This document shows positions 3,656 through 34,695 of a stretch of DNA of 34,695 nucleotides, one piece after another. The notes beneath the pieces are model-generated. The model was not told where the DNA came from and searched no databases. It worked only from the letters and a program-made list of their open reading frames with translations. Made by a program: the position numbers and the translations under genes. Positions within the stretch are counted from its first letter, which is position 1; each line of letters begins with the position of its first letter. Source of the stretch: Fidelibacterota bacterium (GTDB lineage: Bacteria > Fidelibacterota > Marinisomatia > Marinisomatales > TCS56); the NCBI GenBank assembly GCA_043822705.1, contig JBDRBK010000135.1, positions 1-34,695 on the forward strand. Reading direction: 5' to 3'.

Positions 3656-3667
3656 GATTTTCTCCCC

Positions 3668-4798
3668 TCAACGCTTGATGATGGTGGCGATGCCCTGACC
3701 GGAACCGATGCACATCGTCGCCAGTCCGGTATGGGTATTCTGCTGTTCCATCACATTGATCAGCGTCGTCAGGATGCGGGCGCCGGAGCAGCCCAGGGGA
3801 TGGCCCAGGGCGATGGCGCCGCCGTTCAGGTTGATTTTTTTCGCATCCCAGCCGCCTTTGCGAATTACATACAGGGATTGGGCGGCGAAGGCCTCGTTCA
3901 GTTCGATCGTGTCGATGTCGCCGATTTTAAGCCCCGCTTTTGCCAGTGCTTTTTCCGTGGCGGGCAGGGGACCGGCGCCCATGCGGGTCCAATCCACCCC
4001 GGCCACCGCCCGGCTGACGATCTCGGCGCGGATTTGCAGGCCATGTTTTTTGGCGAATTCATCACTGCAGACGATCACCGCGGCGGCGCCGATGGAGATC
4101 GGGCTGGAGGTGGCGGCGGTGATTGAACCGCCTTCGAAAAAGGCCGGTTTCAGTGACTTGATTTTTTCCACATCGGGTGTCCGGGGACCTTCATCCTTGG
4201 TCACGGTGGCTTCACCGTAAACATCGATGGGGACGATTTCGTTCGTGAAATTGCCGGTGGCCTGGGCCTTCAGGGCCTTCTCATGGGAGGCGATGGCGAA
4301 TACTTCCTGGTCTTCCCGGCTGATATTCAGGTCGTTGGCCAGGTTCTCAGCGGTTTCGCCCATGCCGATGTAAAATTCCATTTCCGCCAGTTCCGGGTGG
4401 AAATCGGGGCTGAAGCCGCCCATCGGCACCGAGAACATGTCCTCCACACCGACGGCGATGCCGCAGTCGATATCACCGGCGACAATGGCGGTGCTGAGCT
4501 GGTGGACCGCATCCATCGAGGAGCCGCAGAAGCGGTTGGTGACCTTGCCGGGCACTTCCTTGGGCAAGCCGGCCAGGATGCCGACCGAGCGGCCCATGAT
4601 CATCCCCTGGGGGCCTTCCGGGAAGGCGCAGCCGAGGCTCAGATCTTCCACCAGTTCTGGTTTCAGCTTGGGATTGCGAGCCAGCAGCGCTTTGACCACC
4701 TGGGCCGCCAGATCGTCGGCACGCATGCCGACCAGTTCGCCGTTTTTAATTCCGATGGGCGAACGCATCACATCAACGATAACGGATTTCTTACTCAT
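3668..4798 (-). CDS. fadA: Acetyl-CoA C-acyltransferase (3-ketoacyl-CoA thiolase)
   Basis: NRFCGSS active Cys, NEAFAAQ, GGAIALGHPLG and MCIGSGQG motifs. Confidence 0.95.
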   Translation of the reverse strand: MSKKSVIVDVMRSPIGIKNGELVGMRADDLAAQVVKALLARNPKLKPELVEDLSLGCAFPEGPQGMIMGRSVGILAGLPKEVPGKVTNRFCGSSMDAVHQLSTAIVAGDIDCGIAVGVEDMFSVPMGGFSPDFHPELAEMEFYIGMGETAENLANDLNISREDQEVFAIASHEKALKAQATGNFTNEIVPIDVYGEATVTKDEGPRTPDVEKIKSLKPAFFEGGSITAATSSPISIGAAAVIVCSDEFAKKHGLQIRAEIVSRAVAGVDWTRMGAGPLPATEKALAKAGLKIGDIDTIELNEAFAAQSLYVIRKGGWDAKKINLNGGAIALGHPLGCSGARILTTLINVMEQQNTHTGLATMCIGSGQGIATIIKR

Positions 4799-4807
4799 GA
4801 TTCCCTC

Positions 4808-6595
4808 CTAAAATGGATAACGTTGTTGGGCATAGATAGCTTCGGCGATCTGCCGCTTGAGCCCAAGAATATCGGTTTTTGGTAACATGTGGCGCTGGAA
4901 GGTCCGCAGCTTGGCCATCACCTCCTGGGGCAGGTTACCGCGGTAGACGCCGTTCCAGCCGGCCAGGGCCATGTTCATCAACTGGATCGAAACTTCGGCG
5001 GCATGCACGCGGGCGATGTCGACCAGGGTCTGGTTCATGCCGCTGGCGGCGATGACCTGCCGGACCCGGCTGATGGTACTGTCGGCGGTGTAGATCAGGG
5101 TGAACATGTTGGCCAAAATTTCCATCAACTGCTGCTGGTGCTTAAGATCCTGCCCGTATTCGCAGAGCGCCTCGTTGAACAGGCTGGCGGCCAGCCGTTT
5201 GCCGGCTTCGATCGACTTGATTTCATCGGCGCACAGGCCGTCGGCGGCGATTTCCTCGTCGCCGTTCAGGAAGGCCTCGATCGTATTGATGTAATCGCGG
5301 ACCGGCAGCTCTTCCATCAGCGCTTTTTTCATCATGTAACCGGTGATGATCTGGCGGTTGATCTCGTTGGTGCCTTCCCAGATCCGGTCGATACGGGTAT
5401 CGCGGAAGGGTGCGGCCATCGGGTATTCTTCGCTGAAGCCGTAGCCGCCCAGAATCTGGATGCCGGTGTCGGCACAGAAACCGAATGATTCGCTGACATA
5501 GACTTTGGCCATCGAAGCTTCGATGGCGAAGCGCTCGGTGGCCTCGCCGGCCTGCAGGTAGTAATCGGGAGCTTTTTTGTCCAGTGTGTCGATTTCATCC
5601 TGGATCAGGCCGATGGTGCGATAGGCCATGCTGTCGGAGGAATAGGTGCGGATCACCATATCGGCCACCTTACCCTTGATGGCGTCGAAATGGGCGATCG
5701 GCTGTCCGAACTGCCGGCGTTCCAGCGCATATTTCACTGCTTCGCCGATCACGCCCTTGCAGCCACCCAGATCGGCCGCGGCCAGCTTGAACCGTCCCAG
5801 GTTCAGGGCATTGAAAGCGATCGTGGCGCCTTTGCCGACTTCATACAGCAGGTTCCCAACCGGTACCTTGCAGTCGGTGAATTTCAGTGCGACCGTTGAT
5901 GAACCCTTCATGCCCATCTTTTTTTCTTCGGGGCCGATCTCAAAACCGGGCATGCCGCGTTCGAGGATGAATGCCGAAAATTTCGATCCGTCGACCTGGG
6001 CGAATACGGTAAATACGGTAGCCCAGCCACCATTGGTGATAAACTGTTTTTCGCCGTTCATGATATAGTGTTGGCCGTCCTCGGACAGGATCGCGGTGGT
6101 CTTGGCCGACAGGGCGTCGGATCCGGAGCTGGGTTCGGTCAGGGCATAGGCGCCCATCCATTCGCCGGACCCCAGTTTGGGCAGGAATTTGGCTTTCTGT
6201 TCCGGTGTTCCGAACCAGACGATCGGCAGCGAGCCGATGCCGACATGAGCGGTGAAGGTGGCGGTGAAAGAGGCGTCGTAACCGCCGCTGAGCGCTTCCA
6301 CCACCAGGGCCGAGGTAATCTTGTCCAACTCCATACCGCCATACTGCTCCGGTATGTCGATCGATAAAATGCCCAGTTCGCCCAGTTCCTGAAACAGTTC
6401 AAAGGTCAGCTCTTTATTGAAGGCATCGAGCTTCTCTCGGTTGGGGCGGATCCGCTCGGCCGCGAAATCGCTGACCATCTGTAAGATTTCTTTCTGTTCA
6501 TCATTGAATTTTTCCCGGATGAAGACCGGTTTCGATCCAATGGATTCCGTCAAAAACCGACCGCCGGTGTTGCGGTAGGTCAGGTTGTCACTCAT
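4808..6595 (-). CDS. fadE: Long-form acyl-CoA dehydrogenase (FadE/YusJ-type)
   Basis: YALTEPSSGSDA, NGEKQFITNG, ERRQFGQPI, QILGGYGF, RIWEGTNEINR. Start placed at ATG 6595, which has GGAGG upstream and overlaps the tetR end. Confidence 0.93.
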   Translation of the reverse strand: MSDNLTYRNTGGRFLTESIGSKPVFIREKFNDEQKEILQMVSDFAAERIRPNREKLDAFNKELTFELFQELGELGILSIDIPEQYGGMELDKITSALVVEALSGGYDASFTATFTAHVGIGSLPIVWFGTPEQKAKFLPKLGSGEWMGAYALTEPSSGSDALSAKTTAILSEDGQHYIMNGEKQFITNGGWATVFTVFAQVDGSKFSAFILERGMPGFEIGPEEKKMGMKGSSTVALKFTDCKVPVGNLLYEVGKGATIAFNALNLGRFKLAAADLGGCKGVIGEAVKYALERRQFGQPIAHFDAIKGKVADMVIRTYSSDSMAYRTIGLIQDEIDTLDKKAPDYYLQAGEATERFAIEASMAKVYVSESFGFCADTGIQILGGYGFSEEYPMAAPFRDTRIDRIWEGTNEINRQIITGYMMKKALMEELPVRDYINTIEAFLNGDEEIAADGLCADEIKSIEAGKRLAASLFNEALCEYGQDLKHQQQLMEILANMFTLIYTADSTISRVRQVIAASGMNQTLVDIARVHAAEVSIQLMNMALAGWNGVYRGNLPQEVMAKLRTFQRHMLPKTDILGLKRQIAEAIYAQQRYPF

Positions 6596-7205
6596 TGTTG
6601 AGCCCTCCGTGGTCATCCTTGACCAGACCGGTCAGGATGAAGTTGGAAATGGTTTCGATGTACTCAGTTGCCGTAACATCGGGCACATCGAAGATCGTGA
6701 ACCAGATAATTCCTTCGATATTGACCATAATCGACAGGGCGGCGATTTTGGTATCAAGGAGGTCGAATTCCCCCAATTCGACCCCCCTGCGCAAAATGTT
6801 TTCGATTAATTTCAGAAATTCGGAATATACTTTCTGCATCTTGACCCGGACATCCACGTCGCGGGATGCCAGGGACCAGAATTCCATCAGTGCTTTGAAG
6901 GGGCGGGGATTAGTCTGGTACTGATTGGCAAAGAAGTGGAACAGTTCCCGGAGCTGGACTGCGGCCGGCTGGTTGTCTTCGACGATGTGATTGAGCGTGG
7001 CGCTGTAGCGGAAGACCCAGTGATTGACGAGTGAAAGGTATACTTCCTTCTTTGACTTATAGTACCAGTAAATGGCTCCCTTACTCAGTTGGGACGCTTG
7101 CACAATGTCATCCATCCGGCTGCTTTCATAGCCCTTCTCGACAATTACGTCCAGGGCAGCCTCCAGAATTTGCTCGCGGCGCTGATTTTCTTTGGAATTA
7201 GCCAT
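6588..7205 (-). CDS. TetR/AcrR-family transcriptional regulator (probable fad operon repressor)
   Basis: N-terminal HTH ILEAALDVIVEKGYESSRMDDIVQASQLSKGAIYWYYKSK; first gene of the operon. Confidence 0.92.
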   Translation of the reverse strand: MANSKENQRREQILEAALDVIVEKGYESSRMDDIVQASQLSKGAIYWYYKSKKEVYLSLVNHWVFRYSATLNHIVEDNQPAAVQLRELFHFFANQYQTNPRPFKALMEFWSLASRDVDVRVKMQKVYSEFLKLIENILRRGVELGEFDLLDTKIAALSIMVNIEGIIWFTIFDVPDVTATEYIETISNFILTGLVKDDHGGLNNE

Positions 7206-7845: not shown

Positions 7846-9285
7846 TTAGATATCGTAATGTATTGCCAGCAAGTGCCGGAAAGCACCACGCCGGGTAACA
7901 CCGGCTATTTTCTTCGGATGCTGAAATTTGATCGGACTGTCATCGGCGCGTTTCAGAATCGGCGGGAAGAATCCGAACTCGTAGCCGACGGTGAAATGAC
8001 CGAATTGCCTTTGCGCGCCGGCGATGATCTCGAACAGGTGCAAATAGTATCGCAAAGGATAATCGATCGGCATTGAGGCCAGGTCGAATTCCAGCCGGGC
8101 GGTACCTTTCAACCGGAAATCATAATACCCGTGATAATAACCGGTACTGGTATGGAAGGTGTATTTTAATCCTGACCAGCGATAACCGATCTTTATGTTC
8201 TGGCTGGTTACCGGGCCTGCGATTTCGACACCGGCCGCATGCGCTACCGGCAATATATAACGACCCAACACGGGAGTAGTCAGGTCCGCGCTGGCGGAAA
8301 TATTGCTGTAACCTAAACCAATTGAATAATTGAAATTGTTTTTCGTACCATCGATTTTGATTGCGCCGCCGGTACGATCGCCAGTGATCCAGCCCAATTC
8401 CCGGAAATCGGTGATAATTCCCTCGGCTAACTGATTGGCAACATCGATTTCCAGGGCTGTTTTAAAAATCGTGATGGCAGGAGTCATATCGGATCGGCTG
8501 GCGCCAACTCCCATTTCCAGAACTTGATCCAGAAATTTTCCCTTGCTGGTGACGGTCCGGAGGCCGGTCAGTTGATCAATATTGGATGTATTAGTATAAC
8601 ACAGGCGCGTGTCGAAAACCATTTGGGTCCGGCAGTAGTTTAAATTCAGTTTATATTCGTTAGAAATCGGCAGTGTGGCGAAGAACCGGGGCTGGAAATG
8701 GCTGATCGAAATTTCCAGATCCAGATCGCGGCCAAAAGCAGGCTCGAGATAATTCAGAAAATATTTATTCAGGTTTTTATCATCGGAAACGGGATAGTTG
8801 TTAATCACCAGTGGTGTTTGACTGGTATTACCGGCCGTTTGCAGGCCTCCACCCAGCAGCAGATTATTATTGGTGAGCGCCGCGAGCAGGGAAGCGTTCC
8901 AGCCATTTTGCCGGTAGTGTCCGGTAATCGAACCGGCTTCCTCGCGATTCTGGAAATCGGAAACCGGGCTGCCGGCCCTGATGGTGAAACCGTAATTACA
9001 TATGTTCCCCGGCCGGATATTCGTGAAACCGGCAATTCTTTCCCAGTTCTGGCAAGCGACAATTTCCTTACCAGTCAGGGTCTGGCGGTAATAATCATTG
9101 ACACTGTGACTGATGAAATATTCCGTTCCTGATTGATTCAGCCGGGCAATCGTGAAACGCTCCAGGCGGTAATCATTCAGAAGTATCGGCAGAAGCTGAT
9201 AGAAATTCTGCGCGCTGGTCGGTATGGTGGATTGAAATAAAAGCCAGAGGATAATTACTATCCTCTGGCTGGTCAAACGATTCAA
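7846..9285 (-). CDS. Hypothetical exported protein, probable outer-membrane beta-barrel
   Basis: 479 aa, TTG start; signal peptide (IVIILWLLFQSTIPTSAQ); many Gly/aromatic alternating strands (YSIGLGYSN, FTVGYEFGFF); C-terminal HLLAIHYDI; 14 bp downstream of the T9SS cargo gene. Confidence 0.6.
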   Translation of the reverse strand: MNRLTSQRIVIILWLLFQSTIPTSAQNFYQLLPILLNDYRLERFTIARLNQSGTEYFISHSVNDYYRQTLTGKEIVACQNWERIAGFTNIRPGNICNYGFTIRAGSPVSDFQNREEAGSITGHYRQNGWNASLLAALTNNNLLLGGGLQTAGNTSQTPLVINNYPVSDDKNLNKYFLNYLEPAFGRDLDLEISISHFQPRFFATLPISNEYKLNLNYCRTQMVFDTRLCYTNTSNIDQLTGLRTVTSKGKFLDQVLEMGVGASRSDMTPAITIFKTALEIDVANQLAEGIITDFRELGWITGDRTGGAIKIDGTKNNFNYSIGLGYSNISASADLTTPVLGRYILPVAHAAGVEIAGPVTSQNIKIGYRWSGLKYTFHTSTGYYHGYYDFRLKGTARLEFDLASMPIDYPLRYYLHLFEIIAGAQRQFGHFTVGYEFGFFPPILKRADDSPIKFQHPKKIAGVTRRGAFRHLLAIHYDI

Positions 9286-9299
9286 TTTGTTAGTTGTAA

Positions 9300-11672
9300 T
9301 TACTTCAACAGCATTACTTTATGCGTTCGGGACTGGTTTTCAAAAGTTACGCGATAGAAGTAAACACCGGAGGGCTGGCTGGCTGCATTCCAGGGAATCA
9401 GATTGTACCCGGCGCTCATCTCCCGGTTCAACAGTGTGGCGACCTTCACACCCAGCAGATTGTAAACACTGACGTCAGCCGCGCCGGCCTGAGGCAGGTC
9501 GAAGCTGATCCAGGTGACCGGATTGAACGGATTGGGATAGGCCGCCCGGACGACAAAGCTCCGGGGAAGCGCCGGCAGACCACCGGGAACAATATCCAGT
9601 TTATAGCGATCCGGGAATACGCCACCCAGGGTGCTGTCGGTCCCCAGAATGAAGTTCTTCCACATCACCAGGAAACTGGCCGGTGGATTATCGAACCAGG
9701 CGGATAGATTCGTGCGCTCGCCATCGATGATCGTTACCGAATCCGGATAGGCGAAATCCTGCCAGACTTCGTAGGTGGCGTCATCCATTTCTTCCATATC
9801 GGCGATGAATTGCAGGCCGTCCATGTCGAAATCCGTCTCGTAAGGTTGCATGGCGCGCGCAAGGTCCGTCATCAAGGCGAAGAATTCGTTGATTTCCGCC
9901 AGTCCCTCTTCCAGCATATCGCCGGCTTCGATAAAGCGCTGGACACCGAGCGGTGTGAGCGTCAGAAATGCCGGGTTGGACAGTTCCAGCAATTGAACCA
10001 AATCGGTATCGCTCTCGACTGTACTGAAGTCCAGAACGGTGGGATCGAGGTCGAGGATAAAAATATCATCCAATTCAGCGTACAGGGCGCTTACACCGTC
10101 GATTACCAGCTCAATTCCGGTTTTAGCGACGGCCAACTGTATTTGTACGATTTGTACAAGCGGTACCGGGATATTGATGATTTCAAACTCACTGGCTGGT
10201 CCGATAATATACCGACCAAGTCCGTCATCGGCGGTTTTGACCAGCGCCACGAAATGCGCCGGCCGATCGGCATCGGTGAAATATGACAGGTGCTCGTCAA
10301 TCATATCCAGGTCATCGAGGAAATTGACTGCTTCCCAATCGTAATAATAGGTCAAGCTGTCAATTCTGCCAGCATCCAGGTAATAAAAAATATCATCGAT
10401 TATCTGAGCCTGATCATTAATCAATTCAAAGGTCTGAATCAGGGCAAGACCCAGGTGGGCATCCGGATCGGTGGGATCGGTCATCCCCAGTTTTAGTGAC
10501 CACATTGCCTGCAGTGCATCCAGGCGCAGATCAAAATCATTTTCATTGTCCCAATTATTAACGATTACGTCGGGACTCAGCAGGCCGAGAGTTTCCGAAT
10601 CGAGGCCGTACGGGAAGATTCCACCGAAAATGTAAGCGGCTGGTGTTGTCGAGCGGTAGAAATCCCAGTAAATATTCGGTAGACCATCTCCAGGCAGGTT
10701 CTGGATTATCGCCAGCGGCTTGATGGTTTTCCCTTCCGCTTCCGGTCCGAATTGGTATTCCTCACCGGCCAGCAGTAAATCCAGTTCGGTCAAGCCTTCC
10801 TGAATTGAGTCGATCGGAGCGGTGTCAATTTCAAATGGTCCGAATGGTTGGGTCGTGAGGATTACCTGCAACGTGTCCAGTAATTCCGACAGGTTGTTCA
10901 GTCCGGTCCTCAGGTGAGCGATCCCCGGCATCACGTCGCCGCCGGTGATAGCCATGACCGAATCCATCCAGGAACCAAACTGGTCGAAATTATTTCCGAT
11001 TTCATCACCGATTTCCTGCAGATCTTCGATATGATCGAATAAAACCCGGTCGAAGATGAATGTGGTATCGGGAAAATCGGCGGCCAGTACCTGCAGTGCG
11101 AAACTGAAATCGGCGGTACTGTTAAAGATCGAATCGATATGGCTGCTGAAATTCTCATTGGTGAAATTGAAATCGAGGTCGGAGAAAAATTCATCGACGA
11201 TCGTTCCGAAGTCGTTGAAATTCGTATCCAGTTCGTCAAATTTCAGATCCATGAAATCCCGGAAAGCAACGTAATCGCCGTTGTTGAAAAAATCTGTCAG
11301 AGCGGGAATTACCGCATTAATCTGGAACGGATCCAGGATCGGGATAATATCATCTCCGATTCGATCGCCAATAGCAATCAGATTATTATCGATCGATTCC
11401 ATGACCGGTTCCAGTTCCGTTATCATCGTGTCGCCGTCGACATGGCTCCAGGCGAAAGCCATAATTGCCAGACCCATATGGGCCCGCATGACCGCTTCTT
11501 CGTCAACGCCGAGATAGATGTCCACCAGCCAGTTGGCCTCTTTATTGACCAGATAGTTAATATAGTCAACCGTAATATCTTCGGTCAGAACCAAGTCCGG
11601 CGCCGGCTGGGCGGCCAGATTCAGTGCCAGCGTCAAAAAGATTATTGTGGTACAAAATCGGTTTAACTTCAT
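9300..11672 (-). CDS. Secreted acidic protein with T9SS type-A C-terminal sorting domain
   Basis: Signal peptide MKLNRFCTTIIFLTLALNLAAQ (ATG 11672, AAGGA upstream); C-terminal AYPNPFNPVTWISFDLP...YNLLG...SGVYFYRV...KVMLLK. Confidence 0.85.
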   Translation of the reverse strand: MKLNRFCTTIIFLTLALNLAAQPAPDLVLTEDITVDYINYLVNKEANWLVDIYLGVDEEAVMRAHMGLAIMAFAWSHVDGDTMITELEPVMESIDNNLIAIGDRIGDDIIPILDPFQINAVIPALTDFFNNGDYVAFRDFMDLKFDELDTNFNDFGTIVDEFFSDLDFNFTNENFSSHIDSIFNSTADFSFALQVLAADFPDTTFIFDRVLFDHIEDLQEIGDEIGNNFDQFGSWMDSVMAITGGDVMPGIAHLRTGLNNLSELLDTLQVILTTQPFGPFEIDTAPIDSIQEGLTELDLLLAGEEYQFGPEAEGKTIKPLAIIQNLPGDGLPNIYWDFYRSTTPAAYIFGGIFPYGLDSETLGLLSPDVIVNNWDNENDFDLRLDALQAMWSLKLGMTDPTDPDAHLGLALIQTFELINDQAQIIDDIFYYLDAGRIDSLTYYYDWEAVNFLDDLDMIDEHLSYFTDADRPAHFVALVKTADDGLGRYIIGPASEFEIINIPVPLVQIVQIQLAVAKTGIELVIDGVSALYAELDDIFILDLDPTVLDFSTVESDTDLVQLLELSNPAFLTLTPLGVQRFIEAGDMLEEGLAEINEFFALMTDLARAMQPYETDFDMDGLQFIADMEEMDDATYEVWQDFAYPDSVTIIDGERTNLSAWFDNPPASFLVMWKNFILGTDSTLGGVFPDRYKLDIVPGGLPALPRSFVVRAAYPNPFNPVTWISFDLPQAGAADVSVYNLLGVKVATLLNREMSAGYNLIPWNAASQPSGVYFYRVTFENQSRTHKVMLLK

Positions 11673-11817
11673 GGTAAATGTCCTTACTGACAATTATCTG
11701 TTAATCAGCGGTTTGTTACTTCCCTGCAAAGATGCTTATCTTAATATGGATCAATAGCATATTCGTAACACCCATATTTGAATTTATACAATAATACGAT
11801 CAATTGAATTAACAATA

Positions 11818-14456: not shown

Positions 14457-14485
14457 TTGGAAGCGTGTGTTCAAAATGGTATAAT
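14457..14485 (+). promoter_or_regulatory. Sigma70 promoter of the gdhA operon
   Basis: TTGGAA (14457-14462), 17 bp, TATAAT (14480-14485), with TGn extension. Confidence 0.65.
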
Positions 14486-14547: not shown

Positions 14548-15834
14548 ATGAAGAGCGGAGCCTACAATGCCTTCGAAATGGCACAGGCGCAGTTTGACAA
14601 GGTAGCCGAATTGATGAATCTGGACGCCGGGACCAGGGCGCTGCTGCGTCGTCCCCTGCGGGAGTATCATTTCAGCATCCCGGTGCGCATGGATGACGGA
14701 CCTGTTCAGGTTTTTCAGGGCTTTCGGGTGCAGCATAATGATGCCCGCGGTCCGGGAAAGGGCGGGATTCGTTTCCATCCCATGGAAACAATCGATACCG
14801 TGCGCGCCCTGGCCACGTGGATGACCTGGAAAACGGCGGTCGTGGATATACCGCTGGGCGGCAGCAAGGGTGGTGTCGTCTGCGATCCCCATAATTTAAG
14901 CGACCGCGAACTGGAGCAGATATCCCGCAACTGGGTCCGCCAGATATCTCAGAACGTTGGTCCTTTATTGGATGTACCGGCCCCCGATGTGATGACGACC
15001 CCCCAGATCATGTTATGGATGCTGGACGAATATGAAGTTCTGAACCGTGGCAGATACCCGGGCTTTATTACCGGCAAACCGGTGGGGAGCGGCGGTTCCC
15101 TGGGCCGGACCGAAGCAACCGGCTACGGCGTAATATTTACCCTGCGGGAAGCGCTCAAGGAAAAAAATATCGCTCCCAAGGATACCATTGCCAGTGTACA
15201 GGGATTCGGCAATGTGGCCCAATACGCCATTCGTTTGTACAAGCAGATCGGCGGCCGAGTGATTGCGGTGTCGTGCTGGGACCAGAACGAGCAGAAATCC
15301 TACACCTACCGGAAACAAGAAGGTATCGACCTGGATGCCCTGTTGAAAATCACCGACCGTTTCGGCGGCATCAAGAAATCCGCAGCCGTGGAACTGGGCT
15401 ACGAAGTTCTGCCCGGTGAAGCCTGGCTGGAACAGGAAGTGGATATCCTGATCCCGGCCGCCCTCGAAAACCAGATCACGATCGACAATGTCGAACGGAT
15501 TCACCCGCGGGTTAAAATTATTGCCGAGGGTGCCAACGGTCCTACTGCCCCGGATGCCGATACGGTTATCCATCAGCGCGGGATTTTCATGATACCTGAC
15601 CTGCTGGCCAATGCCGGCGGTGTCACCTGCAGCTATTTCGAGCAGGTTCAGAGCAATCTGAACTATTTCTGGGAAAAAGACGAGGTACTCAGCAAGCTGG
15701 ACGTTAAAATGACCAGCGCCTTTATCGCCGTCAGCGACCTGGCCCGGAAAAGGAATCTGTACATGCGCGATGCGGCCTTCATGATTGCGGTGGCCCGCGT
15801 GGCCCAGGCTTGTAAAGACCGTGGTTGGGTCTGA
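14548..15834 (+). CDS. gdhA: Glutamate dehydrogenase (Glu/Leu/Phe/Val dehydrogenase family)
   Basis: GPGKGGIRFHP, MTWKTA, PLGGSKGG, DVPAPDV, ITGKP, GRTEATGYG, QGFGNV, EGANGP, NAGGVTCSYFE. Confidence 0.93.
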   Translation: MKSGAYNAFEMAQAQFDKVAELMNLDAGTRALLRRPLREYHFSIPVRMDDGPVQVFQGFRVQHNDARGPGKGGIRFHPMETIDTVRALATWMTWKTAVVDIPLGGSKGGVVCDPHNLSDRELEQISRNWVRQISQNVGPLLDVPAPDVMTTPQIMLWMLDEYEVLNRGRYPGFITGKPVGSGGSLGRTEATGYGVIFTLREALKEKNIAPKDTIASVQGFGNVAQYAIRLYKQIGGRVIAVSCWDQNEQKSYTYRKQEGIDLDALLKITDRFGGIKKSAAVELGYEVLPGEAWLEQEVDILIPAALENQITIDNVERIHPRVKIIAEGANGPTAPDADTVIHQRGIFMIPDLLANAGGVTCSYFEQVQSNLNYFWEKDEVLSKLDVKMTSAFIAVSDLARKRNLYMRDAAFMIAVARVAQACKDRGWV

Positions 15835-15909
15835 TCCAGCCGGAATTGAATAATACGGTCCGGCCGGAGGAAATCGTCGTTCCGCCGGACATTCACCGAG
15901 GAGGTGACG

Positions 15910-17667
15910 ATGAGTGAACCCAAACCGGTGGGTCCGCATCCCGGGGTTCCCTTCGAGCGTAAGTTTTTCGATGCTGAAGCTGATTTCATGACAATCGGGG
16001 CTGCTGCCGTAGGCGGAAAAGCCCAGGGTCTGGCCTTTGTCAGCACGATTCTCGAATCCGATTTCGAGCGCGCCGCTTTCCCCGATTTTTCCGTTGCCAT
16101 TCCCCGGATGGCGGTGCTTGCCACCGATGTTTTCGACCTGTTCATGGAGCGTAACGGCCTGAGGGAAGTCGCCGGTTCCGACCTGCCCGACGACCGCATC
16201 GCCCATGCCTTCCTGAAGGCGGAGTTCCCGACCGAGTACCTTGGTGATCTGCGCGCCTTGATCAGCAAGATCAACCAGCCGCTGGCCATTCGATCCTCCA
16301 GCTTGCTGGAGGACGCCCTGCACCATCCTTTCGCCGGTGTCTACGGGACAAAAATGATCCCCAACAATCAGCCGGATATCTCCAGCCGTTTCCAGCGGTT
16401 GATTGAGGCAATCAAATTCGTGTATGCCTCGACTTTTTTCCGTGAAGCCAAGGCCTATATCAGTGCCACCAACTGCCGCCCGGAGGACGAGAAAATGGCG
16501 GTCATCATTCAGGAGGTAGTGGGGCGGCGCAGCGGTGACCGCTTCTATCCGGCGATTTCGGGCGTAGGCCGGTCCTTCAATTATTATCCGGTCGGTAAAA
16601 TACGGCCGGCGGACGGAGTAGTCAATCTGGCCCTGGGGTTGGGCAAGACCATTGTCGATGGCGGTCGCTGCTGGAGTTATTCGCCGGCCTTTCCGCGGGC
16701 CAACCCGCCCTATGGCTCCCCTCGTGACCTGCTGAAACTTACGCAAGTTGATTTTTTCGCCGTTAATATGGGCAAGCCGCCCGCCTACGATCCGATCCGG
16801 GAAAGCGAATTTCTGGTGCAAAGCGGGCTGGAAGAGGCCGAGAGCGATGGTAATCTGAAATTGATTGCCGCCACTTACGATGGCGCCTCGGATCGGGTAG
16901 TTCCCGGTATCGGTCAACCGGGACCGCGGATCATCAATTTCGCGCCGATCCTGCTCTATGAACAATTACCGCTCAACAACCTTGTCCGACATCTGCTGGA
17001 ACTGAGTCGCGAGAAAGTCGGCGCCGAAGTAGAAATTGAGTTCGCCGTGGATATCGATCCGCAGCGGAAAGAGCCGGCGCGACTGGGTTTTCTTCAGGTC
17101 CGTTCGCAGGCCAGCTCGACCAGCAAGGTGACTATCGACCAGGCAGCGCTTGCCGCGCGGGAAATTGTAGTATATTCGGAGACGGTACTGGGCAACGGCG
17201 AAATTGACAATATTCACGATATTGTCTATGTTCGACCGGAACTGTTCGCCGCCCGTCATTCGCCGGCCGTTGCCGCCGAGATTGAGGAATTGAACCGGAT
17301 AATGGTAGCCGCCGCCCGGCCCTATCTGTTGATCGGATTCGGCCGCTGGGGCAGCAGCGATCCGTGGCTGGGAATTCCGGTCAATTGGGGCCAGATTTCC
17401 GCCGCCCGGGTGATCGTGGAAGCAACGCTGCCGGAGATGAATGTGGAGCCGAGTCAGGGGTCGCATTTTTTCCATAATCTGACTAGTTTCAGCGTACCCT
17501 ATTTCTCCGTTGCGCATGGTTCGCGGACCGCCCGGATCAACTGGCCGTGGCTGGAACACCAGGCGGTGGTCAGCGAGTCCCGGTTTGTCCGCCTGGTTCA
17601 TTCGGACCAGCCGCTGACGGTGCAAGTTGACGGATTACAGGGTTTGGGAGTAATACATCATGGTTAA
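15910..17667 (+). CDS. PEP/pyruvate-binding (PPDK_N, ATP-grasp) domain protein A; not a complete PEP synthase
   Basis: GGKAQGL, AIRSSSLLED..FAGVY, MAVIIQEVVG, GLGKTIVDG, EIEFA..FLQVR; C-terminal GRWGSSD and PSQGSHFF. RBS GAGGAGG before ATG 15910. Confidence 0.85.
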   Translation: MSEPKPVGPHPGVPFERKFFDAEADFMTIGAAAVGGKAQGLAFVSTILESDFERAAFPDFSVAIPRMAVLATDVFDLFMERNGLREVAGSDLPDDRIAHAFLKAEFPTEYLGDLRALISKINQPLAIRSSSLLEDALHHPFAGVYGTKMIPNNQPDISSRFQRLIEAIKFVYASTFFREAKAYISATNCRPEDEKMAVIIQEVVGRRSGDRFYPAISGVGRSFNYYPVGKIRPADGVVNLALGLGKTIVDGGRCWSYSPAFPRANPPYGSPRDLLKLTQVDFFAVNMGKPPAYDPIRESEFLVQSGLEEAESDGNLKLIAATYDGASDRVVPGIGQPGPRIINFAPILLYEQLPLNNLVRHLLELSREKVGAEVEIEFAVDIDPQRKEPARLGFLQVRSQASSTSKVTIDQAALAAREIVVYSETVLGNGEIDNIHDIVYVRPELFAARHSPAVAAEIEELNRIMVAAARPYLLIGFGRWGSSDPWLGIPVNWGQISAARVIVEATLPEMNVEPSQGSHFFHNLTSFSVPYFSVAHGSRTARINWPWLEHQAVVSESRFVRLVHSDQPLTVQVDGLQGLGVIHHG

Positions 17668-20428
17668 ATCAAATTCATCGGTCGATCAGATTATCGATGC
17701 TTTGCAGGAACGCTCCAAAGAATTATACTGCCTGTATCAGGTCGAGGAATTGCTGCGGAATTATAATGAACCGACGGAGACGGTACTACAGTGGGTGGTC
17801 CAGATAATCCCGGCCGGCTGGCAGTACCCGGACCTGTGTCAGGCGCTGATCGAATACGATTCCCGGATTTATGCCACGAACAATTTTGAAGCGACTGCCT
17901 GGCAGATCGAGGCACCGATCCGTGTACACGATGAAGACCTGGGGCGGGTGGTGGTCAATTACCGTTCGACCGTTCCCGACGAAGATAACGGTCCGTTCTT
18001 CAAGGAAGAAAAAAAATTACTCAAGGCCATCGCCGAACGGATCAGCAATTTTGTCATGCACCAACAGCTCAAGCAGATCAAGCAGGAGTTGAGTGAAGTC
18101 AGGGCCGGCCGGCGGAGGATGGATGACCGGGAAACACTGATCGTCACGGAATTGCTGTATCGCACCGATACCGATTTGTTCCTGCGGATTGCCCGCAAAA
18201 TGCTGAATTTTCTATGCCGCAAGGGCATTCCGGAAGCGGAAGCGATCCTGCACGACCTGAGTTCTGACAAACTGATCAGTAACAATGCCAGAATTCTGGG
18301 CTCTAATCGTCCCACCAAACCCAAGGCCAAGAAAAATATCATTGAATTAAGCAAACTGACGTTTGATATTGCCGGCCGTTTCCTCAGCGACGAGGATATC
18401 ATCGATCGCATCCAAAACTGGATTCACGAGGACAAAATCAATTTTTTGATCAAATCATTGAACGATCCGCACAGCACTATCGATGAAATTGCCGACGATT
18501 TTCGCCGCTTCCGGCAACTGGAAGTCCGGGAGAATATCCGGGTCTCGGAACATACCCTGCGCAGTATCCGGGTTCAGGCGATTCAACGGCTGTTGACCGA
18601 ACAGACCGGTTACGTCACGGTCGCCAAGGAATTCATTGAAATGGATGATCTGGCCGGTCTGATGGAGCGTCTGATTTATCCGGTCAACAGTCACGGTCAG
18701 TTGGGCGGCAAGGGCGCAGGGATGTTTCTGGCATCCCGGATCGTCAAGCGATTGAGCCGTAACTATCCCGGACTGAAAAACGTACGCACCCCCAAAACCT
18801 GGTACATCGCCTCCGATGGTCTGATCCGCTTTCTGTACCATAATGACTTGCAGGATATAGTCAATCAGAAATATAAGGATATCGACCAGATCCACCAGGA
18901 ATATCCCCAGATCATCGAGATTTTCAAGAATTCCAAATTTCCGCCCGAGATGGTGCAGAAGCTGGCGGTCGCGCTGGATGAATTAGGCGATGTGCCGATC
19001 ATTGTCCGCAGCTCCAGCCTGCTCGAAGACCGGCTGGGGTCGGCCTTTTCGGGCAAATACGAAAGTTTGTTTTTAGGCAACCAGGGCAACAAGAAGGACC
19101 GCCTGGCCGCCCTGCTGGACGCGATCGCTGAGGTTTATGCCTCGACTTTCTGTCCCGATGCCATTGAGTACCGGACCGAGCGCAATCTGCTCGATTCGCA
19201 AGAGCAGATGGGCGTCCTGATCCAGGAGGTGGTGGGTCGGCGGGTCGGGCCCTATTTTCTGCCAGCCTTCGGTGGCGTGGCCCTCAGCAACAATGAATTC
19301 CGCTGGTCCCATCGGATCAAGCGCGAGGATGGTCTGATTCGGCTCGCTCCGGGGCTGGGTACCCGGGCAGTGGACCGCCTCAGCGACGATTACCCGGTCC
19401 TGATCGCACCGGGCCAGCCCGGTCTCCGGGTCAACGTTTCGATCGACGAAATCGTGCGCTACTCGCCGAACAAGATCGATCTGATAAATCTGGAATCCAA
19501 TTCTTTCGAAACCGTCGATCTGAAAAAGTTTATCCGTGATTACGGCGAAGATTTTCCCCCGCTCCAGAATATGATTTCGATCCTCCGCGATAATCATCTG
19601 CGGCCGCCGTCCCTGCTCGACACCGATCTGACCGAGGTCGAGGTGGTGGCGACTTTTGACGGCCTGATCAAGAACACTTCCTTTGTGGCCGACATCCGTG
19701 AAATGCTGCTTGGGCTGCAGGACAGTTTGGGCTTTCCGGTGGATATTGAATTTGCCTCGGACGGTGAAAATTTCTATTTGCTGCAATGTCGGGCCCAGAG
19801 TTACAGCAAGCTTACGCAACCGACCGAGATACCCAAGAATATTGACGTAAAATCAATCCTGTTTTCAGCCAAACGCTATATCTCCAACGGCTACGTTCCG
19901 GAAATCACTCATATCGTGTATGTCGATCCCAACCGTTACAGCGAGATTGGTGAGCGCGATATCATGCTGCGGGTCGGAAGGGCGGTCAGCCGCCTGAATC
20001 TGGAACTGCCGAAGCGTAAATTTATCCTGATGGGTCCCGGTCGCTGGGGCAGCCGTGGCGATATCCGACTGGGGGTAAGCATCACCTATTCCGATATCAA
20101 TAATACGGCGGTCCTGATCGAAATCGCCCGTAAAAAAGGCAATTATCTGCCGGATCTTTCTTTCGGCACCCACTTTTTCCAGGATCTGGTCGAGTCGGAA
20201 ATTCGCTACCTGCCGCTCTATCCCGATGATCAGGGAATCCAATTCAACGATGCCTTTCTGCTGGAATCGCCCAGCATTCTGACCGCTCTGCTGCCGGGCT
20301 ACGAGGCCTTGCAGGATATCATTCGGGTGATCGACGTTCCCCAGGTCACCGGGGGACAGATACTGCGTATTTACATGAATGCCGACCGCGATGAGGCACT
20401 GGCCGTTTTGGTTTCCAAAGATAACTGA
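17660..20428 (+). CDS. PEP/pyruvate-binding (PPDK_N, ATP-grasp) domain protein B with N-terminal GAF-like sensory extension
   Basis: N-terminal LQERSKELYCLY; GGKGAGM, IVRSSSLLED..FSGKYES, MGVLIQEVVG, GLGTRAVD, DIEFA..YLLQCR; C-terminal GPGRWGS and LSFGTHFF. Overlaps the upstream gene by 8 bp. Confidence 0.85.
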   Translation: MVKSNSSVDQIIDALQERSKELYCLYQVEELLRNYNEPTETVLQWVVQIIPAGWQYPDLCQALIEYDSRIYATNNFEATAWQIEAPIRVHDEDLGRVVVNYRSTVPDEDNGPFFKEEKKLLKAIAERISNFVMHQQLKQIKQELSEVRAGRRRMDDRETLIVTELLYRTDTDLFLRIARKMLNFLCRKGIPEAEAILHDLSSDKLISNNARILGSNRPTKPKAKKNIIELSKLTFDIAGRFLSDEDIIDRIQNWIHEDKINFLIKSLNDPHSTIDEIADDFRRFRQLEVRENIRVSEHTLRSIRVQAIQRLLTEQTGYVTVAKEFIEMDDLAGLMERLIYPVNSHGQLGGKGAGMFLASRIVKRLSRNYPGLKNVRTPKTWYIASDGLIRFLYHNDLQDIVNQKYKDIDQIHQEYPQIIEIFKNSKFPPEMVQKLAVALDELGDVPIIVRSSSLLEDRLGSAFSGKYESLFLGNQGNKKDRLAALLDAIAEVYASTFCPDAIEYRTERNLLDSQEQMGVLIQEVVGRRVGPYFLPAFGGVALSNNEFRWSHRIKREDGLIRLAPGLGTRAVDRLSDDYPVLIAPGQPGLRVNVSIDEIVRYSPNKIDLINLESNSFETVDLKKFIRDYGEDFPPLQNMISILRDNHLRPPSLLDTDLTEVEVVATFDGLIKNTSFVADIREMLLGLQDSLGFPVDIEFASDGENFYLLQCRAQSYSKLTQPTEIPKNIDVKSILFSAKRYISNGYVPEITHIVYVDPNRYSEIGERDIMLRVGRAVSRLNLELPKRKFILMGPGRWGSRGDIRLGVSITYSDINNTAVLIEIARKKGNYLPDLSFGTHFFQDLVESEIRYLPLYPDDQGIQFNDAFLLESPSILTALLPGYEALQDIIRVIDVPQVTGGQILRIYMNADRDEALAVLVSKDN

Positions 20429-20565
20429 CCGGTTTGCCCGTCGGTATGAAGGGTTGTTGTGGTTTGCGGCGTAGCGCAAACCGGCACAAGTGCCCGGTAG
20501 GTGCGAAAAATTATTGTCAAATAACCATAACTGCGGATTCACTTAAATTCCCAAGGGACTGCCTG

Positions 20566-21255
20566 ATGAAATTGAAAATATCGAAACTGATTGTGGCCGC
20601 TGCTGCACCGCTGCTTTGGCAGAATTTTGCGTTGGCCGCGGATAGTCCGGCCGGACAAGCGGCGCCGGAATTGGTGTTTACCGTGGATATGAGCGAAAAC
20701 CGCTGTCTGCTGGGAATCTGGCTCGAGCAACCCGCCGGCGAATTTGTGGAGACGGTTTTTGTCAGTAATAAACTGGGGCAGAAGGGCCTGGCGAACCGGG
20801 GCGGCGCCATTGATGATAAAAAAGGCGGCTCCCGGATCAGTTCGCTGCCGGTCTGGGCGTACCACCGCGGCATTGATTACGGTAATGGAAATTTCAACCC
20901 ACCCAAGGATCGGCCCCTGCCGGACGCCGTTTCCGGGGCCACGCCCCGGGCCGGTGAATTTACCTGGTCCTATCGGCCGGAGACGGCGCTGCCTTATGGC
21001 AAGTACTATTATTTTGTGGAAGTTAATAAAAGTTTTGACAACAACGACCAGCACAATTATTCCTGGTATCGGGGACAACCATCGGTGATCTGGCGCGGTG
21101 AGCTGATTTTAGGTGAGCAATCTTCCGTCACCGCCGCCGCAATCATCGGTCACGGCCACCCGGCCGGCGCCGATGGCTCGATCAATCCTGATATAGCAAC
21201 GTTGACCTCGGCGCTGGACCTGATCCACGCCGTAAATGTGACCATTATTCCCTGA
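20566..21255 (+). CDS. DUF2271-like exported protein with DAVSGAT flavinylation motif
   Basis: Signal peptide MKLKISKLIVAAAAPLLWQNFALA; IWLE..AGEFVETVFV, LPVWAY, PDAVSGATP, YFVEVN, GQPSVIW. Confidence 0.7.
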   Translation: MKLKISKLIVAAAAPLLWQNFALAADSPAGQAAPELVFTVDMSENRCLLGIWLEQPAGEFVETVFVSNKLGQKGLANRGGAIDDKKGGSRISSLPVWAYHRGIDYGNGNFNPPKDRPLPDAVSGATPRAGEFTWSYRPETALPYGKYYYFVEVNKSFDNNDQHNYSWYRGQPSVIWRGELILGEQSSVTAAAIIGHGHPAGADGSINPDIATLTSALDLIHAVNVTIIP

Positions 21256-21267
21256 CCGGAGCAGCGG

Positions 21268-22095
21268 ATGGACCGTAATTCAATCCCCCAGGTATTCGGA
21301 ACGCACAAGCCGGTGGTGGGCATGATCCATGTGTCGGCCCTCCCGGGGACGCCCGGCTACGGCGGTGACATGAAAAATATTATTGCCGGTGCGGTGAGTG
21401 AAGCGCGGCAGTACCGCGACGCCGGCATCGATGCCCTGGCCATCGAAAACATGCATGATCGCCCCTATCTCAAGCGTGCAGTGGGGCCGGAAATTGTCGC
21501 TGCCATGGCGGTGATCGGGTATGCAGTGAAACAGGCAGCCGGTTTGCCCACGGGGATTCAAATCCTGGCCGGCGCCAATCAGGCGGCGCTGGCAGCCGCG
21601 CTGGTAGCGGGCCTCGATTTCGCCCGGACCGAAGGCTTTGTTTTCGGTCACCTGGCCGATGAAGGTTTGATCGAATCGGACGCCGGCGAATTGTTGCGGT
21701 ACCGCCGGCAGATCGGCGCCGACCATATCCCGCTGTTGACTGATATCAAGAAAAAACACAGCTCGCATGCGATCACGATGGATATTGATATCAGCGAAAC
21801 TGCCCGCGCTGCCGAATTTTTTCAGAGTGATGGTATTGTGATCACCGGTAGTTCTACCGGCCGACCGGCTGCTATGGAGGAAATTGTGGCGGTGCGGGAA
21901 GCGATTGACCTGCCGGTATTCGTCGGCTCCGGAATCACCGCCGAAAATGTGAACGATTATTTACCGATCTGCGACGGGCTGATCGTCGGATCATATTTAA
22001 AAGTGGATGGCCGCTGGTATAATCAGCCGGATAGTGTTCGGATCGGTCGCCTGTTGACGATCGTTCATGAATTTCACAATCGTCGGACCGACTGA
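21268..22095 (+). CDS. BtpA/SgcQ family TIM-barrel protein
   Basis: VGMIHVSALPGTP, IENMHDRPY, DIKKKHSSHAIT, VITGSSTG, VGSG, IVGS. Confidence 0.92.
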   Translation: MDRNSIPQVFGTHKPVVGMIHVSALPGTPGYGGDMKNIIAGAVSEARQYRDAGIDALAIENMHDRPYLKRAVGPEIVAAMAVIGYAVKQAAGLPTGIQILAGANQAALAAALVAGLDFARTEGFVFGHLADEGLIESDAGELLRYRRQIGADHIPLLTDIKKKHSSHAITMDIDISETARAAEFFQSDGIVITGSSTGRPAAMEEIVAVREAIDLPVFVGSGITAENVNDYLPICDGLIVGSYLKVDGRWYNQPDSVRIGRLLTIVHEFHNRRTD

Positions 22096-33298: not shown

Positions 33299-33348
33299 TT
33301 ACTGGTTATTTGTCGCACCGGAAATCCGGAATCAAGCATTTACCGATA

Positions 33349-34695
33349 ATGCAGCACAAGAACGAAACGAAATTGAAAGAAAATACAACATCTACCGGTT
33401 TCTCAGGCGGTCAGCAGGTACTAATCGTTGAAGATGACCCCAATATACTGGCCCAGTTGGCGTTTCATCTGAACAGTGCCGGCTATCAGGTCGATACCGC
33501 CACCGACGGTGATGTCGCCATCAATAAAATTAATAATGACCAGAAATACGATCTGATCGTCCTGGATATCATGATGCCTCGGGTGACCGGGCTGGATGTC
33601 TGCCGGGCGGTCCGGAAGCAGTATAACCTTTACGAATTACCGATTCTGATTTCATCCGCTCTGTCGGAATCTCAGGATGTGGTCACCGGTCTGGAAACCG
33701 GGGCTAATGATTATATAACCAAGCCCTTTCAGCGAGTCGAACTGTTGGCCCGGGTAAAGAACCTGCTGTCGCTAAAACACATGAGCGATCTAGCGCGGGC
33801 TAATGAACAACTGGCCACCAACCGAGCCCTGTACGACGGGTTGACCGGGCTGCCCAACCGGACGTCGCTGTACGGCAAATTGCAGGAAGCGATCATCGAA
33901 GCCAATCGGGAGAATACGGCGATCGGGACGATTTTTGTCAATATCGACCGGTTCAAGTCCATCAATAATTCCATGGGCCATGCCGTTGGCGATATTTATC
34001 TGCGTGAAATCGGCCAGCGCCTGCGCGAGCATGCCGGCCCCAACGATATCGTGACGCGCTTGTACACCGATACATTCGCCGTCGTCAAACCACGGATCAA
34101 ACGGAATGGCCGGGAGAAGGTTATTCTGGCCGAATATGCCCAGGAAATTCTACAGTTGATCAATGAACCGATCATCGTAAATCAATACGAGTTGAGACGT
34201 ACCGCCGGTGTCGGTATTTCGCAATATCCGGAAGGCGCCCGTTCCGTTGATGAAATTCTACGTTTCGCCGATTCGGCTATGTACTATGCCAAGGCCAAGA
34301 GCACTAATTCCTTTATTTTTCACTCCAGCGAGGTGCATCTGAACGAAACCGAAAAATTCGCCCTCGAACGGAAAATCAAACAAGCCCTCAAGAATAATGA
34401 ATTTGTCATGTACTACCAGCCCCAGATTTCCGTAACCGACGAATCGATCGTCGGGGTGGAGGCGCTGATCCGCTGGAACCATCCCAAGGACGGCCTGATC
34501 TCGCCCACTAAATTCATTCCGGTAGCGGAAGAGACCGGCATGATTATTCCCCTCAGTCGCTGGGTTCTGGAAACCGCCGCCCGCCAGAACAAGACCTGGC
34601 AGAAGCTGGGCCTGAATCCGATTCGGGTCGGCGTTAATCTTTCACCCCAGCATTTTTACACACCGGGACTGATTGAACAGGTCGATGGAATAATC
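33349..34695 (+). CDS. REC-GGDEF(degenerate)-EAL protein, probable c-di-GMP phosphodiesterase; truncated by window end
   Basis: Not in the ORF track because no stop falls in the window. Hand translation: VLIVEDD...LDIMMP...DYITKPF (REC); YDGLTGLPNR...FVNIDRFK...GHAVGD...RLYTDTF (GGDEF-like); YYQPQ...GVEALIRWNHP...FIPVAEETG (EAL). Confidence 0.9.
   Translation, partial: MQHKNETKLKENTTSTGFSGGQQVLIVEDDPNILAQLAFHLNSAGYQVDTATDGDVAINKINNDQKYDLIVLDIMMPRVTGLDVCRAVRKQYNLYELPILISSALSESQDVVTGLETGANDYITKPFQRVELLARVKNLLSLKHMSDLARANEQLATNRALYDGLTGLPNRTSLYGKLQEAIIEANRENTAIGTIFVNIDRFKSINNSMGHAVGDIYLREIGQRLREHAGPNDIVTRLYTDTFAVVKPRIKRNGREKVILAEYAQEILQLINEPIIVNQYELRRTAGVGISQYPEGARSVDEILRFADSAMYYAKAKSTNSFIFHSSEVHLNETEKFALERKIKQALKNNEFVMYYQPQISVTDESIVGVEALIRWNHPKDGLISPTKFIPVAEETGMIIPLSRWVLETAARQNKTWQKLGLNPIRVGVNLSPQHFYTPGLIEQVDGII

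Follow-up and report, generated by a model that had tools for sequence, protein, structure and literature searches.

Two barrel-less PEP synthase-like proteins encoded beside glutamate dehydrogenase in a Fidelibacterota bacterium: candidate histidine autokinases for control of that enzyme

We describe a gene unit from a Fidelibacterota bacterium (assembly GCA_043822705.1, contig JBDRBK010000135.1, positions 1 to 34,695; this whole stretch of 34,695 nucleotides is called the window below), in which a gene for glutamate dehydrogenase (GDH) is followed by two paralogous genes, here named A and B, for proteins that resemble phosphoenolpyruvate (PEP) synthase. They have a PEP-synthase-type ATP site, a docked swivel-like domain with an invariant histidine and no acceptor domain in cis, and they are co-inherited with one clade of GDH. 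Of several possible explanations we favour, with moderate confidence, that A and B are ATP-grasp/swivel-histidine autokinases which act as a post-translational control unit of the co-encoded GDH, at the junction of 2-oxoglutarate and glutamate. The unit is made up as follows.

14548..15834, + strand: gdh, glutamate dehydrogenase (open reading frame, 428 aa)
15904..17667, + strand: gene A, ATP-grasp and swivel-like His domain, no N-terminal sensor (open reading frame, 587 aa from GTG)
16006..17124, + strand: ATP-grasp of A, of the type found in PEP synthase and rifampin phosphotransferase (RPH) (PF01326, aa 35-407)
17116..17664, + strand: C-terminal swivel-like domain of A, with GRWGS and SQGSHFF (structure model, fold matches)
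17464..17466, + strand: His521 of A (counted from 15904), predicted phospho-His on the basis of conservation
17660..20428, + strand: gene B, GAF-like module, helical region, ATP-grasp and swivel-like His domain (open reading frame, 922 aa)
17660..18079, + strand: N-terminal sensor-like module of B (recurrence in other proteins; weak GAF label)
18080..18679, + strand: helical region of B, outside the known families; may serve in docking
18698..19840, + strand: ATP-grasp of B (PF01326, aa 347-727)
19805..20413, + strand: C-terminal swivel-like domain of B, with GRWGS and SFGTHFF (similarity to the domain of A)
20171..20173, + strand: His838 of B, predicted phospho-His on the same basis

The open reading frame coordinates agree with the original prediction, which had gdh followed by two genes on the same strand that overlap by 8 bp; the likelier start of A is the ATG at 15910, which is preceded by AGGAGG. 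Every nucleotide-binding and C-terminal motif quoted in that prediction was located in both proteins, at GGK37, RSSSLLED130, IQEV202, GLG245, IEFA378, LQVR397, GRWGS480 and GSHFF519 in A, and at GGK349, RSSSLLED450, IQEV521, GLG565, IEFA696, LQCR708, GRWGS794 and GTHFF836 in B. The two proteins share 27% identity across 547 columns (E 6e-40), and in each of them PF01326 was the sole match of a Pfam scan, with no match to PF00391 or to the pyruvate barrel PF02896 and no T[SG]H motif. The Lys, Arg, Glu, Gln and Arg motifs of the PEP synthase/PPDK ATP-grasp domain are kept in both. In RPH, Lys22, Arg117 and Thr136 are the essential catalytic residues (PMC4844700), and these map onto the invariant K, R and T/S of the A/B family. 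The solved structures that come nearest A's ATP-grasp domain are those of RPH, PEP synthase and HpeI, with structural Z scores of 25–27 against PEP synthase and RPH and 17–18 against PPDK.

Homologues carry source names such as ‘phosphoenolpyruvate synthase’, and the NCBIfam PEP synthase models do give partial matches to A and B, with 21–59 bits against cut-offs of 598–883. These low scores, and the absence of PF02896, bear out the earlier statement that A and B are not PEP synthases. As the only PF00391 and PF02896 matches of the genome sit in a complete 914-aa PPDK encoded elsewhere, neither protein is one half of a split PEP synthase, and this candidate was rejected. There is no free pyruvate-barrel gene in the genome and none that recurs near A across 80 loci, and a substrate domain of the RIF-binding type is absent from A, from B and from the recurring neighbours of the loci.

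The original prediction took the G[S/T]HFF motif for a diverged phospho-histidine site, and this has gained support from structure models. A model of the C-terminal domain, built from 94 aligned domains, reached a pLDDT of 95.8; in a Foldseek search with it the top rank went to PPDK (E 0.015), and the PPDK phosphoryl-carrier domain on its own came fourth. All four top ranks in a wide VIA structure search were histidine-carrier domains, namely those of PPDK (2fm4 and 1vbg; Z 6.9, root-mean-square deviation 3.6–3.8, 116–122 residues aligned), pyruvate kinase (2e28; Z 6.8) and RPH (5hv1; Z 6.7), the range over the top matches being Z 6.7–6.9, deviation 2.9–3.8 and 107–122 residues aligned. The full-length model of A (pTM 0.88) superposed as a single piece on PEP synthase 2ols (Z 25.5, deviation 4.3, 360 residues aligned, model residues 17–585 on chain residues 4–466), on RPH 5hv3 (Z 26.2, 347 aligned) and, as far as residue 508–510, on PPDK 1dik/1kbl (about 350 aligned), while the alignment to PPDK 2r82, 1vbg, 1vbh and 5jvn stopped at residue 400–402. 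We take the histidine domain to lie on the nucleotide side in the entries of the first group and on, or towards, the pyruvate side in the latter four, an assumption that is partly based on the titles of the entries. Since both domains superpose on the nucleotide-side group only, the C-terminal domain of A is placed in the model as an ATP-engaged swivel domain, and its swivel-like nature is supported both by its fold and by its docking position.

The histidine is conserved in 124/124 related rows and in 153/154 domain copies (50%-identity representatives, best 150 of 2,451), as the original prediction had required; the counts of K and H in a further set of 41 cores are circular, these residues having served as the filter. 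His117 of the domain model opens a helix (116–124), and the spacing of GxG and DGxxG around it agrees with swivel domains when compared by eye. The residue at position −2 is Gly, and there is no TSH or regulatory Thr. Compared with the PPDK swivel domain, the C-terminal domain has about 50 additional aa, and one Arg in it is invariant. A search of PDB sequences with its profile (hmmsearch) returned chance matches only (best E 0.044), and in the ESM Atlas the domain, like residues 140–340 of B, matched the family's own clusters only. With a near-invariant histidine, intact RPH-type catalytic residues and a docked domain, autophosphorylation of this histidine is, by analogy, a good inference rather than a result.

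The window GDH gets its highest score from the archaeal-type GdhA model, under the cut-off of that model; it is distinct from the E. coli-type NADP GdhA and belongs to the clade that co-occurs with A and B. The linkage of both genes to gdh, also foreseen in the original prediction, is strong. In an A-centred set (best 80 of 487 GTDB loci) gdh is present in 74 and B in 76 of the 80 loci, the four loci without B all ending at contig edges, and in 73 a gdh of the same clade lies directly upstream of A. For a B-centred set (best 80 of 618 metagenome loci), where an alignment served as the query because a single B protein gave no matches, the 44 loci with at least 2.5 kb upstream were assessed; gdh was found in 40 of these and A in 24, with 16 having gdh without A. 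A close orthologue of the GDH occurs in 10 of the 151 genomes of the phylum, all ten of which encode A and B; one further genome has A and B at a contig end. Thus an unrelated fold, a variable histidine or a lack of gdh linkage, which the original prediction had named as findings against itself, are not what the computation returned. Among the recurring neighbours of 80 A/B loci there was no response regulator, and no substrate-domain gene besides GDH and a phosphoesterase. A segment of GDH (about aa 244–296, window 15277–15435, with WDQ...ITDxFG...GYE...W) is kept in the A/B-linked clade and differs in other members of the GDH family; it is a candidate docking or modification site. A prediction of the GDH and A complex (571 aa, 53-row alignments) scored 0.01 and was uninformative.

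The original prediction further proposed that A and B form a heteromer. Joint action is supported by natural A–B fusions, as three representatives (P0121–P0123) are fusions with linkers and in locus L071 A reads through into B. An obligate heterodimer was rejected, given the 16 of 44 loci in which B and gdh occur without A.

The family includes a third paralogue, subtype C, which extends the original prediction and of which the genome itself encodes one.

L001:3330-7814 (same genome): third paralogue, subtype C, 999 aa, convergent with an NADP-type gdhA

Proteins of this subtype, of about 1,000 aa, have two receiver-like domains, a DUF5752-like domain, an ATP-grasp domain and the same His domain; in the second receiver domain E, D244, S278 and K297 are kept in 52/52 rows. 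C is the usual form of the family in the phylum of the window, where the family is present in 126 of 151 genomes (2,451 representatives overall at 50% identity), and the Bacteroidales proteins of about 990 aa that are named PEP synthase are C-type. A control search with DUF5752 gave no match in Bacteroides thetaiotaomicron and was uninformative as a control. A gdh gene adjoins C in 18 of 26 loci of relatives with 1.5-kb flanks and in 16 of 20 wider loci (two of these 20 being B-only), some with gdh-C-gdh-C-gdh arrays; gdh genes of two GDH families are found next to each of the three subtypes. In loci L216 and L219, C replaces A in its slot, and in a midpoint-rooted FastTree tree of 41 cores A falls inside the C group (support 0.77–0.87), with B apart. 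From these sequences A is best seen as a C-type protein minus the receiver domains, and as accessory. Loci L143, L145, L146 and L150 contain arrays with as many as three gdh genes, from two families; in L145 and L150 these alternate with genes of the C type.

Two more layers beyond those recognised originally are a GAF-like sensor and a nucleotidyltransferase–phosphoesterase pair. The N-terminal stretch of B, about 140 residues, recurs in HisKA sensor kinases, is found in one to four copies on C-type proteins and occurs fused alone to a nucleotidyltransferase; its GAF label derives from one weak Pfam match (E 0.088) in a homologue. Because of its presence in HisKA kinases and of up to four copies on C, the module is probably a sensor. 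Proteins with this module also lie inside gdh/C or gdh/A/B clusters (L156:15481-17295, L158:2424-4235 and L190:7950-9839); that of L156 is a sensor kinase (HisKA-HATPase) which may feed the receiver Asp of C-type proteins.

In most B homologues the chain is about 1,060 aa long, with a nucleotidyltransferase of the pol-beta type (GS-x10-DxD) at its end; this domain is present in 64 of 66 assessable GTDB B loci. The window B stops about 140 aa short of most homologues and lacks it, and an orthologue was not found elsewhere in the genome. An assembly artefact was rejected, as the stop is spanned gap-free by contigs of a single study, two of its runs being represented, and the short end is shared by related strains. 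A calcineurin-like phosphoesterase accompanies the nucleotidyltransferase in 53/64 GTDB loci, compared with 0/2 without that domain, and in 24/46 versus 0/17 loci of the metagenome set; pooled, this gives 77/110 against 0/19, with a Fisher p of 3e-9 that overstates the coupling because of kinship. With these queries the phosphoesterase gave no match in this genome (93% complete), in two short-B genomes or in one genome with a long B. The two proteins may constitute a writer and an eraser, and judging from the sequences the genome of the window has lost the nucleotidyltransferase layer while keeping intact kinase cores. The window is thus a useful minimal version of the system. In locus L291 (2408-4046) a 265-aa protein consisting of sensor module and nucleotidyltransferase, followed by a phosphoesterase, lies between two C-type genes.

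Post-translational control of GDH by partner proteins is established in other forms, as GarA/PknG, GltAB acting on GudB, Thermus GdhA/APRTh and Caulobacter GdhZ-KidO. To our knowledge none of these uses an ATP-grasp/swivel-histidine protein. GlnE/GlnD are similar to the family in having a pol-beta nucleotidyltransferase and a co-occurring hydrolase beside an enzyme of nitrogen assimilation; the family differs in its minimal nucleotidyltransferase and separate calcineurin-like phosphoesterase, neither of which was found in this genome. PEP synthase (PpsA, 2ols) and PPDK share the ATP-grasp catalytic residues and the position of the second domain in the A model, whereas A and B have neither the barrel nor TSH and score far under the family cut-offs. 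RPH, the best structural match to the ATP-grasp of A, likewise has its swivel His at the C-terminus. For HpeHI, CreHI and phenylphosphate synthase the acceptor site may sit on a separate polypeptide (PMC12167813), while A and B keep ATP-grasp and His on one chain and the acceptor site is the missing part.

The closest functional parallel is VadK (Rv1127c) of M. tuberculosis. VadK has no barrel, autophosphorylates at His422, co-precipitates with the methylcitrate-cycle enzymes PrpC and PrpD, which are encoded nearby, and acts without transcriptional change; phosphate transfer to PrpC/PrpD is not reported in the parts of its description that were covered (PMC13400623). VadK and A/B both combine an ATP-grasp and a His domain without barrel or acceptor domain, and are encoded near metabolic genes, which in the case of VadK are those affected. 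VadK is derived from PPDK, while the ATP-grasp domain here, judged by structure, is nearer to PEP synthase and RPH. The His domain of A/B also has no GGxTSH motif and escapes PF00391, and the family adds a paralogue pair, sensor and receiver domains, nucleotidyltransferase and phosphoesterase, with GDH as the predicted partner. By analogy, the A/B family appears to work like VadK while being of separate origin, with a His domain that is recognised by no library.

A 1996 study by Baggio and Morrison reportedly describes trans-acting genes downstream of gdhA that affect GDH activity, and a downstream fragment of about 3 kb is said to have been required for GDH activity in E. coli. This fragment may correspond to gene BT1972 of B. 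thetaiotaomicron. In Liu et al. (2021) BT1972 is annotated as PEP synthase/PPDK and by locus tag lies between the glutamate dehydrogenases BT1970 and BT1973; among the rows listed its only partners with cofitness of at least 0.8 are korB (0.824) and korA (0.817), for 2-oxoglutarate synthase, and korAB themselves group with genes of amino-acid biosynthesis and with one for a CoA transferase (PMC8121099). BT1972 is probably a member of the family, considering its annotation, its position and the C-type nature of the Bacteroidales PEP synthases of about 990 aa. These data link the family to the supply of 2-oxoglutarate and glutamate; they are as compatible with a regulator of GDH as with one of KorAB or with a metabolic enzyme, and may include polar effects. 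Nothing on BT1970–BT1973 was found in the supplementary data of PMC13508794 or PMC9758874.

In the process we favour, ATP would very probably be cleaved to AMP with phosphorylation of the histidine, in analogy to PEP synthase, RPH and VadK. The N-terminal module of B would then read a metabolite and set the phosphorylation state, and B, helped by A if present, would alter the activity of GDH, a sequence of steps in which we have moderate confidence overall. How GDH would be affected is a more tentative matter: the phosphorylation state could gate binding, as proposed for VadK, which we consider possible at best, or the phosphate could be handed to GDH, which we consider rather doubtful. The nucleotidyltransferase and phosphoesterase would add a second layer in most relatives, gone from this genome. 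A more far-reaching version, also rather doubtful in our view, would see the family as widespread non-GHKL histidine kinases derived from PEP synthase, which pass the ATP beta-phosphate to the swivel His and from there to GDH (or, in the receiver subtype, into an Asp relay), are tuned by a metabolite sensor and a pair of nucleotidylating and de-nucleotidylating enzymes, correspond to the trans-acting GDH factor of B. thetaiotaomicron from 1996 and constitute the main post-translational nitrogen switch of many anaerobes.

Several observations weigh against control of GDH by swivel-type autokinases. The Z scores of the swivel matches are middling, with a DRTGG domain in a tie at 6.7 and enzyme I domains next. 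A comparison of the C-terminal profile with 27 PPDK swivel domains (hhalign) was not significant (probability 0.2), and the forced alignment leaves the two histidines unpaired, so the equivalence of the family His to that of PPDK is inferred from the model. The published motif of the phospho-histidine domain, T/SxxGGxxxH (PMC12167813), is not retained, the motif here being SxG[ST]HFF. The ten genomes in which GDH and A/B co-occur belong to only 4 genera and are not independent. C is present in 39 of 41 genomes of the Bacteroidales-type order, while gdh is close by in no more than 12 of the 30 loci obtained for that order, 20 of them re-read with up to 8 kb. Among the rows listed in the fitness study, gdh BT1970 is not among the partners of BT1972 with cofitness of at least 0.8 (PMC8121099). 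Finally, biochemical data on the A/B family were not found in the searchable literature.

We consider it unlikely that A and B are instead small-molecule dikinases or ATP-dependent ligases of 2-oxoglutarate and glutamate metabolism. The phospho-His would in this case activate a metabolite bound at the extra GRWGS and SxG[ST]HFF surfaces, or on a partner enzyme, namely GDH, a CoA transferase or a 2-oxoacid:ferredoxin oxidoreductase, comparable to HpeHI, RPH and PigC, and one version has it drive high-affinity reductive amination on GDH. Such a function would be consistent with the closest ATP-grasp structures, with the split two-component dikinases described in PMC12167813, with the cofitness of BT1972 and 2-oxoglutarate synthase (0.82; PMC8121099) and with the extra length and the invariant Arg of the His domain, as well as with CoA-transferase and 2-oxoacid oxidoreductase genes that flank 4 of 20 C-type loci. 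The A/B loci, however, contain no fused or co-encoded substrate domain except GDH and the phosphoesterase, and sensor, receiver, nucleotidyltransferase and phosphoesterase modules typify regulators. In L147, L156, L157 and L158, C-type/gdh loci are flanked by alanine dehydrogenase-like, acyl-CoA hydrolase/transferase and 2-oxoacid:ferredoxin oxidoreductase genes.

Still less probable, to our mind, is a phosphorelay or signalling system with a target other than GDH, in which the swivel His would pass its phosphate to the Asp of the second receiver of C or to an enzyme such as KorAB, gdh being merely a co-regulated neighbour. The invariant residues of that receiver would be explained, as would the frequent distance of C from gdh in the Bacteroidales order, the sharing of the N-terminal module of B with HisKA kinases and the cofitness of BT1972 with korAB (PMC8121099). 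This is countered by the lack of a receiver domain in A and B and of a recurring response regulator beside them, and by the strict co-occurrence of A/B with the GDH clade in the phylum sample; the receiver Asp is equally explicable as input from an ordinary sensor kinase.

That nucleotidylation of the GlnE/GlnD kind is the core of the system, with the nucleotidyltransferase writing, the phosphoesterase erasing, the ATP-grasp/His part sensing and the window copy a decaying remnant, is very unlikely. It would account for the near-constant GS-x10-DxD domain, its coupling to the phosphoesterase and the stand-alone pair in L291, but the window lacks both components and yet its full-length A and B keep every catalytic residue, the short B end is common to related strains, and the domain is missing from 17 of the 63 B-like loci in the metagenome set as well as from most C loci. 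An ordinary PEP synthase, or a split one with the barrel supplied by another gene, has the database names and partial NCBIfam matches in its favour and can practically be discounted in view of the low scores, the confinement of the only barrel to an intact PPDK and the lack of a barrel gene recurring in 80 loci.

A published description of the A/B family was not found, in a search mostly of open-access literature; what this analysis adds is the superposition of both domains, the counts for nucleotidyltransferase–phosphoesterase coupling, the finding that linkage is weaker in Bacteroidales, and the cofitness lead from BT1972. The PEP synthase label on a large family misleads metabolic reconstructions, and the co-travel with gdh across many bacteria points to an undescribed control at the glutamate/2-oxoglutarate junction. 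If control of GDH by A and B is correct, it would represent a post-translational nitrogen switch in gut and environmental anaerobes, and the old Bacteroides observation of a trans-acting GDH factor could be put to the test directly in a tractable strain for which a mutant library exists.

Upstream of gdh there is one further feature.

14457..14485, + strand: sigma-70-like promoter match TTGGAA-17-TG.TATAAT (consensus only, 10/12 matches)

This match is weak, because the region has 8 such sites against 4.8 ± 2.3 in shuffled sequences. The genes 3′ of B (window 20434–22095), for a DUF2271-like putative exported protein (weak match) and a member of the BtpA/SgcQ family, do not recur in homologous loci. 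At 30935–34695 a PAS/GAF histidine kinase is followed by a receiver-GGDEF-EAL protein, with no apparent link to the gdh unit. The 797-aa protein encoded at 9300–11693 has a C-terminal sorting domain of type IX secretion and adjoins a 479-aa open reading frame without Pfam match (7846–9285). Another such reading frame, of 309 aa, lies at 149–1078, the first kilobase having 32% GC compared with about 55% elsewhere, and a fatty-acid beta-oxidation cluster led by TetR (acyl-CoA dehydrogenase, thiolase and 3-hydroxyacyl-CoA dehydrogenase/hydratase) occupies 1310–7205.

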